Below are positions 61,519 to 62,758 of a DNA stretch of 64,000 bases, one piece after another (the stretch's first letter is position 1; the number at the start of each line of letters is the position of its first letter). The position numbers and the translations under genes were made by a program. The DNA is from a virus. The stretch lies in the UHGV virus genome UHGV-1364441, one strand, 5' to 3'. The notes under the pieces are model-generated. The model ran no database searches. It saw nothing but the letters and a program-made list of their open reading frames with translations, and was not told where the DNA came from.

Positions 61519-62587
61519 ACTTGCCGGGTACGTCTCCGGCGAGGGCTTCCACCTCCGTATGCTTTTCGGCGCACCGCGCCCTGGCTGCAATTCAGTAACA
61601 GGGGATGCATAACCCTGGCTTCCAGCGTGATAAGCGCCTTCAGCATGACGGGATATACCCGTAACCAACAAACTTTCCCATATACCATCAAACAATGGCT
61701 GTTACGCGGGAGGGACGTAACAGGTAAGGGCGCTGACCAGAAAGACCTGACCCTTCTCATTCATCTGGTTAATCACACCAGCGCCCTTGCCTGTTATGCC
61801 TCCCCGTTCCCTAATACACAGACGGGGTCACTCTGCGGTCGATTTTTTGACGGGGGACGACTCATACCCCGTGGCGTCTGGCTTCTTAGGCCGCTACCAT
61901 CATCAGATCATCGTTTGCATTTACTTTAATGGTCGGTTTCTAAACCGCCGCAAAGCCGCTAACCATGACGAAAACCCTAAAAAAGCCCACCCGAAGATGG
62001 GCAAATACGCTACATCTCACACAAGAAAGAAGCCGACTGCCTGAGCTGGATTCACTTTCAAATGCCCGCAGAAAGGGAACACAAGTCGGCTTCTTTCTTG
62101 ATGCGGCACTCTCTCCGCCCGTCACCGCTCTGTCTCGGTTGTCGCGTTTGCCACGCCAGCCATAACGAGGTTTAAAGTCTTTGCACGTTTCCATCACTCG
62201 ACTGCCGTCTGTGGCTGTTCGTTGCAGCGGGGGTGCCTCCCCCTGGGGATATCCCCGGCCTTACCCCATTCTTTCAAGACACAATGCAAGGCCGCATCCG
62301 CATAGGTGCATTACCGCAACATTAAGGAGACTTAGGGCAAAAGGTAATCGCCACAAAAAAATCCCTATGCCTCCTTAATGTTGAGGATGTGCATTGATGA
62401 TGATTCGATGCGGCGAGTCCCGTTACTCTCTGCCGGACCATCATCAATGAACATCTTAAAAAGACCTTCCGTGGCTCAACATGTCTTGTCGTTTACTCCG
62501 TAAAGTGCTCTCTCTGAAACCACTTTACGCACTAAACCTGCTGAACTTTGGCTTGCTCGGTGCCAAAGCAAATCCCTGTATGCATGT

Positions 62588-62600
62588 AATTTTCTAACAC
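62588..62600. promoter_or_regulatory. operator-like motif (reverse orientation)
   Basis: aattttctaacac. Confidence 0.5.
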
Positions 62601-62740
62601 TTTAATTTGTTATTTGCTGGTGGGCGAACAACAACCAATAAGTGACTATCAAGCCCAGCAAGCGAAATGTGGCAACGCTCCACCAGCAAGGAAAATTCTA
62701 AGTTAAGTTACTCTCACAATCAATATGTTCGTTTGGTGAA

Positions 62741-62758
62741 ATTAGATTTCTAACACAT
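62741..62758. promoter_or_regulatory. operator-like motif (reverse orientation) abutting stop of 62758 gene
   Basis: aattagatttctaacaca. Confidence 0.5.

Follow-up and report, generated by a model that had tools for sequence, protein, structure and literature searches.

A 1.2-kb region on the minus strand of the window (the whole 64,000-nucleotide stretch of viral DNA analysed), at 61519-62757 between pmgS and a tRNA array, is probably the untranslated 5' portion of an early operon under repressor control, with RNA products. These products would include a conserved element that, by its sequence, looks like the tag-coding half of tmRNA. The region corresponds to a long, folded, non-coding leader RNA upstream of the tRNA array, in agreement with an earlier suggestion of a structured leader, and its P1 counterpart is annotated as an untranslated leader. 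In genome annotation, these 1.2 kb should not receive hypothetical proteins.

The region is homologous to the leader of the P1 ban operon

The window belongs to the P1 family and is D6-like: D6 is 95% identical to it across 60300-62800, and the match to P1 and P7 stops at 62005. Directly upstream of the first tRNA, P1 68855-69347 is 90% identical to 61519-62005 of the window, and at this homologous place the P1 annotation gives P1ban, the C1 operator Op72ab, an untranslated leader and tRNAs, with ban downstream. Although P1 is among the best-studied phages, the only functional annotation in the long leader of its ban/tRNA operon is a 'dicF-like' note. The D6 annotation gives trnI followed by orf6, orf5, lpa and pacAB, and the same ORFs lie at 58902-59869 in the window. 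An alignment of relatives reveals that the leader is a mosaic of modules (Table 1), of which the 3' spacer, with its many invariant columns, is ~90% identical in some 480 P1-like plasmids.

Downstream, ARAGORN identifies four tRNA genes, all on the minus strand and beginning at 61518; Rfam at its gathering cut-off reports three tRNAs only in the whole window. We also identified a tRNA-like cassette downstream of tRNA-Thr that ARAGORN does not call. It has a U3-A70 pair and no CCA, and its homologues in other phages show compensatory changes in the stem. This cassette lies near the tmRNA-like element in many contexts, but not in all.

The original prediction found no convincing ORFs in the region, and our analysis agrees: all are shorter than 90 aa except one plus-strand ORF that runs across two tRNA genes. 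A conserved coding frame had been named as evidence that would speak against a non-coding role; we examined two ORFs, and neither is conserved in relatives. An 85-aa ORF (61940-62197) runs through both the 17-bp hairpin and the terminator; S. dysenteriae, E. fergusonii and P1 lack it, and one-base indels break its frame in Pantoea. The other, a 31-aa ORF (62261-62356), looked promising in a first alignment and was then weakened by further relatives (see below).

Table 1. Features of the leader and the adjoining tRNA array, in the order of predicted transcription.
Feature	Position	Strand	Details
Operator-like box 1, AATGTGTTAGAAATCTAA	62742-62759	-	directly after pmgS stop codon, ~20 nt upstream of -35
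Sigma-70-like promoter	62695-62723	-	TTGATT, 17-nt spacer, TAGAAT
5' stem-loop of predicted transcript (I12)	62614-62689	-	TTGCTGGTGG / CCACCAGCAA; 10/10 inverted repeat
Operator-like box 2, AAATTAAAGTGTTAGAAAAT	62589-62608	-	~90 nt downstream of predicted start
Module B, chain of conserved hairpins	62221-62569	-	identified by fold z-score and alignment pairing
Module B hairpins	62546-62569, 62491-62538, 62386-62455, 62315-62385, 62257-62293, 62245-62256, 62229-62243	-	
Module C, conserved non-coding block	62110-62219	-	81% identical to a Pantoea plasmid intergenic stretch
Perfect 17-bp hairpin	62022-62100	-	45-nt structured loop; inverted-repeat search and statistics
Intrinsic terminator	61979-62002	-	GCCCATCTTCGGGTGGGC then T6; mid-region
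tmRNA-like element	61802-61976	-	175 nt; comprises the seven parts below
Box UUUUCGUC	within 61966-61976	-	part of tmRNA-like element
Stem of tmRNA-like element	61932-61969	-	
Resume context	61919-61927	-	
Tag-like frame	61886-61918	-	GCA AAC GAT GAT CTG ATG ATG GTA GCG GCC TAA = ANDDLMMVAA-stop
Hairpin H5	61880-61892	-	stop codon in loop; stem variants GGC/GCC, UGC/GCA, CGC/GCG across family
Pseudoknot PK2	61838-61872	-	ACGGGG/CCCCGT; loop GTCG pairs with downstream CGAC
Pseudoknot PK3	61802-61837	-	CGCAGA/TCTGTG and CCCCG/CGGGG
Long hairpin I3	61708-61805	-	27-nt arms; closing sequence AACAGGCAAGGGCGCTG / CAGCGCCCTTACCTGTT; inverted-repeat search
3' spacer	61519-61707	-	highly conserved; reaches 5' end of first tRNA
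First tRNA, Arg (tct)	61442-61518	-	Asn (gtt) in P1 and D6
Uncalled tRNA-like cassette	61282-61355	-	8-10 bp terminal stem, UUUUGCGACG box, GGGTTCGAATCCC arm; read from sequence

A conserved promoter is flanked by two operator-like boxes

The sigma-70-like promoter is the sole promoter-like site on the minus strand in 60200-63000. In alignment A1, D6-like relatives retain both hexamers, and transcription is predicted to start near 62688, so that the putative transcript would open with stem-loop I12, both arms of which are conserved in all D6-like relatives. The two operator motifs originally placed at 62588 and 62741 are real copies of a motif with the core TGTTAGAAA, which occurs nine times in the window against 0.67 expected; no shuffle reached nine. 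Of the nine copies, seven do not fall in any ORF of at least 90 aa. The core of box 1 is conserved in all D6-like relatives, while its flanks vary in the alignment.

The seven copies elsewhere in the window each precede an ORF start by 14-135 nt; downstream of the two in this region there are RNA genes only. One copy stands upstream of a homologue of hrdC, which in P1 is part of the C1-controlled Op68 operon. By eye, the core shares ~10 of 17 positions with the P1 operator 17-mer. Counting against repressor control, the two boxes flank the promoter without overlapping it. The promoter has no overlapping P1-type C1 operator (ATTGCTCTAATAAATTT). Overall, the original idea of a repressor-controlled minus-strand promoter holds up as a sigma-70-like promoter with repressor-type boxes, whose P1 homologue is the C1-controlled P1ban/Op72. 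Because two C1-type operator boxes flank this promoter, the operon is expected to be off in the lysogen and to be turned on by induction or infection.

Long related hairpins surround a conserved terminator

Perfect inverted repeats are far denser in 60300-62800 than elsewhere in the window (1.6 versus 0.11 per kb), and 61519-62757 contains five of at least 10 bp, compared with a mean of 0.06 and a maximum of 1 in shuffles. The 17-bp repeat described previously exists as stated, with 17/17 complementary positions and a 45-nt loop, but its coordinates were one base too low and are corrected here to 62022-62038 / 62084-62100. The stem noted at 62318-62380 extends to 62293-62337 / 62363-62407 (perfect 13-bp core at 62317-62329 / 62371-62383), and that noted at 62392-62450 corresponds to 62381-62407 / 62434-62460, with 81% complementarity. 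Within the tRNA array, the reported repeat spans 61041-61061 / 61118-61138 and contains a perfect 18-bp core (61044-61061 / 61118-61135); among perfect inverted repeats with loops up to 100, this one and the 17-bp repeat rank as the longest two in the entire 64 kb. We identified two further repeats, at 61709-61735 / 61779-61805 and 62491-62512 / 62516-62537. Moreover, the long inverted repeats are related to each other, a point that had been missed, and the hairpins have common closing sequences of the form ACAAC...GTTGTG. The closing consensus of I3 also occurs in hairpins 3' of the tag element in unrelated phages.

Double-stranded stems some two helical turns long, as expected of RNase III hairpins, stand between units of the predicted transcript at 62022-62100, 62315-62385, 61708-61805 and 61041-61138. 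The long stems have arms of 17-27 nt that are 81-100% complementary, with a longest perfect run of 18 bp, and we infer that these 17-27 bp stems act as RNase III-type processing or stability signals. A second natural variant of the hairpin at 62022-62100 carries two compensatory changes (A-U to U-A and G-C to A-U) and one mismatch.

The conserved hairpins span about 590 nt, 5' of the terminator. Module B folds with a z-score of -7.26, and across 13 distinct relatives 98.3% of its alignment cells are paired, as opposed to 41-47% when the partners are slid; locus L008 (MK356558) was left out of these structure counts for its many single-base indels, which are probably sequencing errors. Three pairs show compensatory changes, a modest level of covariation because the relatives are close. 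The alignment contains ~108 G-U cells and ~8 A-C cells; since a G-U pair would be an A-C mismatch on the other strand, this excess assigns the structure to the minus-strand RNA. The terminator, which the original prediction had missed, is conserved in P1, D6 and all relatives.

An element downstream of the terminator resembles the tag-coding half of tmRNA

RNA structure prediction, proposed originally as a check, shows that the region folds strongly. The region also contains a tmRNA-like element that had gone unnoticed. Its resume context leads into a ten-codon frame ending in Ala-Ala, followed by a stop codon in hairpin H5 and then by two pseudoknots. We found 57 distinct versions of this family in viral contigs, and in other phages the element usually heads same-strand tRNA arrays. 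The tag frame occurs in 17 nucleotide variants that encode eight peptides, all of ten codons; AA-stop closes 16 of the 17 variants and seven of the eight peptides, the remaining one ending in AP. It is the only frame open in all variants, the other two always containing stops, and its changes are mostly synonymous (many at third positions) or hydrophobic-to-hydrophobic. A shared CTGATG lies two codons apart between P1-type and SSU5-type versions, with the tag still ten codons long.

The pseudoknots are likewise conserved. PK2 has a covariation score of 0.358 compared with 0.165 in shuffles (none of 500 as high), and 52 cells are changed on both sides versus 17 expected. For PK3, fully paired versions across the family number eight for stem 1 and seven for stem 2, a non-independent count fitted sequence by sequence, as MAFFT alignment A3 shifted PK3 by two columns. 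A covariance model built from non-P1 phages only (R1) has a single match in the window, at 61805-61947 (82.7 bits, E = 4.6e-14, full model), and also recovers four ARAGORN-called tmRNAs with E = 1e-4 to 0.08. In addition, the window has an exact copy of the 18-nt stretch AGTAAATGCAAACGATGA, which ARAGORN marks as the resume consensus of a permuted tmRNA that it calls.

Neither ARAGORN nor hand reading detected a tRNA-like domain, meaning an acceptor stem with G3-U70, a contiguous T arm and a CCA end, and hand reading identified no acceptor strand beside the UUUUCG box. As candidates for this domain we considered the terminator hairpin as T arm, the spacer end, the first tRNA and permuted arrangements, none of which gave a consistent acceptor stem. 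ARAGORN called no tmRNA in the window, and the Rfam models RF00023, RF01850 and RF04321 did not reach their gathering cut-offs (17.6-23.6 bits in the window, cut-off 47). Sub-threshold matches to tmRNA_permuted and beta_tmRNA occur in the window, P1 and SSU5-like plasmids, the best relative scoring 39.6 bits against 47; in eight other family members, Rfam gave just one weak tmRNA match, so that most members go unseen by it. Direct alignment of the region with an approximate E. coli ssrA sequence scored 23, within the range of shuffles (mean 19.5, maximum 26). The tag frame has neither a start codon nor a Shine-Dalgarno sequence. As the tRNA-like domain is undetectable, the element is not a canonical tmRNA, and no way is known for a ribosome to reach the tag frame. 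No description of a tmRNA-like RNA in P1 or in phage-plasmids came up in literature searches, nor did relevant transcriptome data for P1.

Possible functions and alternative explanations

The tmRNA-like RNA may act on trans-translation in the host, by offering another template for the tag or by competing for SmpB or ribosomes. In a more specific version, which we regard as unlikely but worth stating, P1, D6, SSU5-type and other phages would carry a stripped-down tmRNA, consisting of tag template and pseudoknots only, that is decoded in infection and adds the phage tag ANDDLMMVAA, instead of the host tag, to stalled-ribosome products. Decoding could then borrow host SmpB and the tmRNA entry step, or the element could pair with the separate tRNA-like cassette, making a phage-borne split trans-translation device at the head of a phage tRNA array. 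A somewhat doubtful but conceivable alternative is that the element descends from a captured tmRNA gene and is now an inactive relic, its fold kept only for tRNA-precursor processing or stability and its tag never decoded. The missing tRNA-like domain, start codon and Shine-Dalgarno sequence fit such a relic, as do the Rfam tmRNA scores under their cut-offs and a TnpB insertion tolerated inside the element in a Klebsiella P1-like plasmid. Against a relic stand a tag of ten codons in 17/17 variants, its AA-stop in 16 of them, its mostly conservative changes and the stops in the other frames, as well as a length that is maintained despite the two-codon displacement of CTGATG.

For the remainder of the leader, it is improbable that the hairpin at 62315-62385 hides a small gene, namely the 31-aa ORF, which would encode a hydrophobic peptide from a TTG start behind AAGGAGG, in the manner of a type I toxin with a sequestered ribosome-binding site. 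The AAGGAGG lies 11-13 nt upstream of the TTG, the frame stays open across three highly divergent forms of the hairpin tip, and the compensatory stem change (AAT to AAC) is synonymous. Yet in one relative (L019) the tip is inverted, losing the start codon and keeping the hairpin, and a clade of relatives (L016, L021, L027 and L029) has a +1 G before the stop, which is lost so that the frame runs to at least 65 aa; L011 shows the same reading, although its locus stops shortly afterwards. E. fergusonii has a 1-nt deletion, NCBIfam gives no match, AAGGAG belongs to an arm consensus common to clearly non-coding paralogous hairpins, and ~12 codons are likely to stay open by chance. We also doubt that the long inverted repeats act as DNA, marking recombination boundaries of exchangeable tRNA-array cassettes instead of forming RNA structures. 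Close relatives do differ in tRNA content (Asn or Arg first; extra Tyr, His or Ser), the leader is mosaic, the hairpins have common closing sequences, and one tip is found inverted; but many G-U pairs fit minus-strand RNA only, and no recombinase gene lies beside the region. The two uses are not mutually exclusive.

Two further proposals fare worse. P1-family phages use a processed antisense RNA in immunity, and P1 has an annotated 'dicF-like region' just upstream of the shared terminator, both of which could favor a c4-like antisense immunity RNA or a DicF-like small RNA from the leader. This reading, including the earlier suggestion of a P1 immI c4-like RNA, is largely refuted for the window and highly improbable. 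Neither the window nor D6 has the P1 'dicF-like' module, which does occur in S. dysenteriae, E. fergusonii and LR890273-type relatives, and no DicF match was found in the window or in the P1 'dicF-like region' at E up to 10. Rfam includes a C4 family. Only tRNA families reach its threshold, nothing C4-like matches in 59500-64000 or in P1 at E up to 1, and no ant or icd genes lie downstream. Least credible of all is the other role suggested originally, a lytic replication origin. The region is ORF-free, rich in repeats and adjoins repressor boxes, and the P1 lytic origin is also C1-controlled; against this, its GC content of 50% exceeds the window mean with no AT-rich stretch, it has no DnaA box within one mismatch, no iterons and one GATC versus 4.8 expected, and the homologous region of P1 is a transcribed leader.

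Taken as a leader of an RNA operon, the region suggests the following model. Transcription would begin at the conserved promoter, and the first ~700 nt would fold into a chain of long hairpins ending at the terminator. Termination there would release a long non-coding RNA; read-through would give a precursor of all downstream parts, in the order tmRNA-like element, another long hairpin, conserved spacer and tRNAs. Cleavage at RNase III-type stems and by RNase P at the tRNAs would then release the individual stable RNAs from this precursor. An active tmRNA-like element would mean that many enterobacterial phage-plasmids tamper with ribosome rescue or protein tagging while supplying their own tRNAs, and it would be a natural case in which the mRNA-like domain of a tmRNA works with no tRNA-like domain covalently joined to it. 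Should the element be inactive, the region still defines two families, one of widespread structured RNAs and one of long hairpins that appear to organise phage tRNA arrays.

Comparison with known systems

The P1 ban-operon leader occupies the same position relative to the tRNA genes, likewise has a promoter with repressor boxes, and has its terminator and tmRNA-like element within the part ~90% identical to the window. The D6-type leader of the window extends ~700 nt upstream of the terminator, whereas P1 has ~170 nt there, with the 'dicF-like' module; moreover, ban, a DnaB-like helicase gene distal in the P1 operon, is not found in this place in the window or D6. RNase III processing hairpins occur in phage early transcripts, including the T7 early region and the lambda N leader. 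As in those phages, near-perfect long stems appear to separate units of one polycistronic early transcript; unlike them, the hairpins here have a closing consensus of their own, and their cleavage is putative. With P1 immI c4 the leader has in common a non-coding RNA of a P1-family phage, processed in c4 and putatively so here, but it differs in locus, in sequence and structure, and in lacking ant/icd targets.

The closest parallel to the element itself is tmRNA (SsrA), in its one-piece, permuted and phage-borne forms. The resume context, UAAAU followed by GCA AAC GAU GA, is common to both, as are a tag that begins ANDD and ends AA-stop, a stop codon inside a hairpin loop, H-type pseudoknots after the tag and, for phage-borne tmRNAs, the proximity to phage tRNA arrays; the UUUUCG(U/A)C box of the element stands at the site of the D-loop analogue UUCGAC. 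In contrast to tmRNA, the element has no joined acceptor stem, T arm or CCA end, and the middle of its tag is rich in Leu, Met and Val without the Tyr of ANDENYALAA. Mycobacteriophage DS6A carries a 'TLD-only' tmRNA, one half of the molecule, which has been proposed to inhibit tmRNA, perhaps by titrating SmpB (PMC4131195). DS6A thus keeps the tRNA-like half and the element described here what looks like the mRNA-like half with its pseudoknots, so that both phages would carry half a tmRNA.

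A structured leader at the head of the tRNA array

The 60300-62800 segment shares 95% identity with Escherichia phage D6 and, as far as 62005, ~93% with P1, P7 and many P1-like elements. The full leader region (61519-62757) is found in ~106 plasmids, and 61519-62005 alone in ~480 P1-like plasmids. The minus strand is the coding strand of every gene in this part of the window. At the homologous place, the P1 record annotates the promoter P1ban and the bivalent C1 operator Op72ab, then untranslated sequence that includes a "dicF-like region", followed in order by trnA, trnT, tciABC, trnI, ban and dbn; by this annotation, the leader region is what the P1 ban-operon leader corresponds to in D6-type elements. 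The array begins with tRNA-Arg (tct) in the window, whereas P1 and D6 have Asn (gtt) first, and tRNA content varies among close relatives (loci L001-L008), some of which gain Tyr, His or Ser, suggesting cassette-like exchange. Between a tciB-like ORF and tRNA-Ser lies a sub-threshold Rfam match to STnc100, an enterobacterial small RNA (60582-60702, minus strand; 38.5 bits versus a cut-off of 47, E = 5e-6).

Features of the leader, tRNA array and operator-like boxes
Feature	Coordinates	Strand	Remarks
pmgS-like head gene	62758-63978	-	PHROG "PmgS-like"
Promoter/operator module	62570-62757	-	
Module B	62221-62569	-	in all D6-like elements
Module C	62005-62220	-	missing in S. dysenteriae and E. 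fergusonii plasmids and P1
Terminator module	between modules C and E	-	in all aligned relatives
Intrinsic terminator	61979-62002	-	GCCCATCTTCGGGTGGGC then T6; textbook form; predicted
Module E	61519-61978	-	in all aligned relatives; very conserved
tmRNA-like element	61802-61976	-	tag frame 61886-61918
Hairpin	62315-62385		common closing pattern
17-bp hairpin	62022-62100		common closing pattern, more loosely
Hairpin I3	61708-61805		common closing pattern
Hairpin I5	61041-61138	-	common closing pattern
tRNA-Arg (tct)	61442-61518	-	
tRNA-Thr	61364-61439	-	
tRNA-like cassette, uncalled	61282-61355	-	right after tRNA-Thr, downstream of two tRNAs; common closing pattern
tRNA-Ser	60812-60898	-	
CAT-anticodon tRNA	60324-60399	-	
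Further operator-like boxes TGTTAGAAA	18230, 28136, 36965, 37623, 41366, 53040, 54441		all close upstream of ORF starts

The sole sigma-70-like site on the minus strand within 60200-63000, TTGATT-17-TAGAAT (62695-62723), has both hexamers kept in relatives. The operator motifs of the leader region are two copies of a box with core TGTTAGAAA, which flank this predicted promoter at about -45 and +90. The core occurs nine times in the window versus 0.67 expected, with seven of the nine copies outside any ORF of at least 90 aa; each of the seven copies beyond the leader region lies 14-135 nt upstream of an ORF start. One of these precedes a homologue of P1 hrdC and sits inside a 14-bp perfect inverted repeat (28129-28142 / 28159-28172), perhaps forming a bivalent operator; the P1 record places the uhr-hrdC-dmt operon behind the C1 operator Op68. 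The box copies would fit a C1-type repressor with a D6-specific operator. LR890273-type relatives carry a third, inverted copy overlapping the -35 hexamer; repression of the leader promoter through the boxes is thus plausible. The original prediction of a structured leader under a repressor-controlled minus-strand promoter is supported.

Two other proposed roles did not hold up: as a candidate lytic origin, the region has 50% GC, a single GATC and neither a DnaA box nor iterons, and as a candidate c4-like RNA it has no hit to a corresponding model. We also rejected a DicF-like RNA, for which no model matched and whose P1 dicF-like module is missing from the window.

The intrinsic terminator is kept in every relative, P1 included. 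In the P1 record, Op72ab controls ban, itself downstream of the equivalent terminator, so read-through must occur in P1; by analogy, the terminator in the window would be read through likewise.

Modules and minus-strand RNA structure of the leader

Aligning the minus strands of eight relatives reveals the leader as a mosaic of modules. The P1 "dicF-like" module replaces module C in the S. dysenteriae and E. fergusonii plasmids and P1, and LR890273-type relatives carry the two together. The non-coding block 62110-62219 (110 nt) shares 81% identity with intergenic sequence in a Pantoea sp. plasmid (L007 3001-3113), which also has a hairpin of the long-hairpin family close downstream.

All the inverted repeats originally named are present, with coordinates one base off. 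The longest two perfect inverted repeats of the 64 kb are the 18-bp and 17-bp ones, perfect-repeat density in 60300-62800 is ~14 times that of the rest of the window, and perfect repeats of at least 10 bp, of which the region has five, almost never arise in its shuffles. No ORF here withstands comparison to relatives. The original observation is confirmed. An 85-aa ORF (61940-62197) was rejected: it spans the 17-bp hairpin and the terminator, several relatives lack it, and its frame is broken in a Pantoea homologue.

Module B folds with a z-score of -7.26 against shuffles. Its consensus structure across 13 distinct relatives has 98.3% of cells paired, versus 41-47% with partners slid by 1-3 columns, and three pairs show compensatory changes. 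The pair tables hold ~108 G-U cells versus ~8 A-C cells; since G-U turns into an A-C mismatch on the opposite strand, the structure under selection is that of the minus-strand RNA. For the 17-bp hairpin, a second version occurs in nature that differs by two compensatory changes. One viral contig, L019 (~820-887, equivalent to 62317-62386), carries an exact inversion of the tip of the 62315-62385 hairpin that preserves the hairpin, a natural inversion between hairpin arms. It is improbable that this hairpin instead hides a real gene, a 31-codon hydrophobic frame with a TTG start. The frame is preceded by AAGGAGG and stays open in three different hairpin tips, but the L019 inversion takes away its start codon, an extra G right before the stop extends it to at least 65 codons in one clade, and E. 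fergusonii shows a 1-nt deletion. Moreover, the frame has no family match, and AAGGAG belongs to an arm consensus common to non-coding paralogous hairpins.

Long hairpins and tRNA-like cassettes

Five hairpins are related, having in common the closing pattern (A)CAAC-N3-4-AAG-RG ... CY-CUU-N3-4-GUUG; this family explains the richness in long perfect inverted repeats. I5, of the same family, has 21-nt arms with a perfect 18-bp core and closing sequence CAACGTTGAG.../...CTCAACGTTG, and is located in the 465 nt that separate tRNA-Ser from the tRNA-like cassette, a gap of 189 nt in LR890273-type relatives. In unrelated phages, hairpins closing with ACAACAGGUAAGRGC ... GCYCUUUCCNGUUGUG regularly follow or precede the tag element. 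This family of long hairpins around the tmRNA-like element is new content. The hairpins may act as RNase III-type processing or stability signals; alternatively, they could be DNA-level cassette boundaries, a reading that the variable tRNA content of relatives fits.

The tRNA-like cassette has a terminal stem of 8-10 bp, GGTAAGGG/CCCTTACC (also written GGUAAGGG...CCCUUACC), a UUUUGCGACG (TTTTGCGACG) box resembling the tmRNA D-loop analogue, and a GGGUUCGAAUCCC (GGGTTCGAATCCC) arm; it has U3-A70 and lacks a CCA end. Compensatory changes occur in the stem of its homologues from other phages (L045, L118), and its P1 counterpart extends over the 3' end of plp, which lies on the opposite strand. 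Such cassettes are absent near some element members. In L031, a K. pneumoniae SSU5-like plasmid, a 145-nt tRNA-like unit (2190-2336, minus strand) lies ~170 nt downstream of the tag element. Positions 347-363 of the Rfam tmRNA model align with the arm and 3' end of this unit (E = 8e-5). In one possible register the unit would have G3-U70 and an encoded CCA, and it could be a partner tRNA-like domain.

A tmRNA-like element downstream of the terminator

Right after the terminator, the minus-strand sequence is ...AAAGUAAAU GCA AAC GAU GAU CUG AUG AUG GUA GCG GCC UAA, or ANDDLMMVAA-stop, compared with ANDENYALAA for the E. coli tmRNA tag. About 90 nt of the element recur at 79-83% identity in SSU5-like Klebsiella phage-plasmids, which are unrelated and where the frame is ANDDVVLMAA. 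In viral contigs, a scan for AAATGCAAACGATGAT gave over 120 loci: 85 have a 10-codon frame of the ANDDLMMVAA kind, and 27 have an ARAGORN tmRNA, mostly permuted and nearly all at the matched site. Across 57 distinct element versions, the tag frame has 17 nucleotide variants encoding eight peptides, all 10 codons long, seven ending in Ala-Ala-stop and one in Ala-Pro. Changes are mostly synonymous third-position (GCC/GCG/GCT, GTT/GTA/GTC, CTG/TTG) or hydrophobic-for-hydrophobic, and the other two frames contain stops in all variants.

The tag stop codon lies in a hairpin loop (stem variants GGC/GCC, UGC/GCA, CGC/GCG), followed by two H-type pseudoknots. The first has a covariation score of 0.358 versus 0.165 in shuffles (0/500 as high), and both partners have changed in 52 cells versus 17 expected; in the second, fitted sequence by sequence, stem 1 has eight different fully paired versions and stem 2 has seven. 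A UUUUCG(U/A)C box, like the tmRNA D-loop analogue UUCGAC, is conserved ~55 nt upstream of the resume codon. A covariance model built from 12 element members, excluding the P1 family, gave a full-model match at 61805-61947 (82.7 bits, E = 4.6e-14) and no other over the 64 kb; it also detects four ARAGORN-called tmRNAs (E = 1e-4 to 0.08). In L030, an IncY P1-like plasmid (K. pneumoniae NZ_MH781719), a 1.3-kb insertion with a TnpB gene (2835-4165) splits the element at the equivalent of 61939/61940.

Neither the window nor any of the 85 loci with the 10-codon frame yields a tmRNA call from ARAGORN, and Rfam tmRNA models, scoring 17.6-23.6 bits in the window and 39.6 bits in the best relative against a cut-off of 47, do not detect most family members. 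We found neither an acceptor strand adjoining the UUUUCG box nor a T arm joined to the element. Because the tag frame and pseudoknots are present and the tRNA-like domain is missing, we liken the element to the mRNA-like half of tmRNA, rather than tmRNA proper. It would work like that half and probably derives from it, and by the definition of the tmRNA family it falls outside that family.

In an exhaustive tmRNA survey that covered the phages and plasmids of RefSeq, ssrA was reported only from mycobacteriophages and Bacillus phage G, along with a "TLD-only" gene in DS6A (PMC4131195). For P1 or phage-plasmids, the literature searched, which did not include the P1 and D6 genome papers, mentions no element of this kind. 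What appears to be new is that phage tRNA arrays are headed by a widespread tmRNA-like element that lacks a tRNA-like domain.
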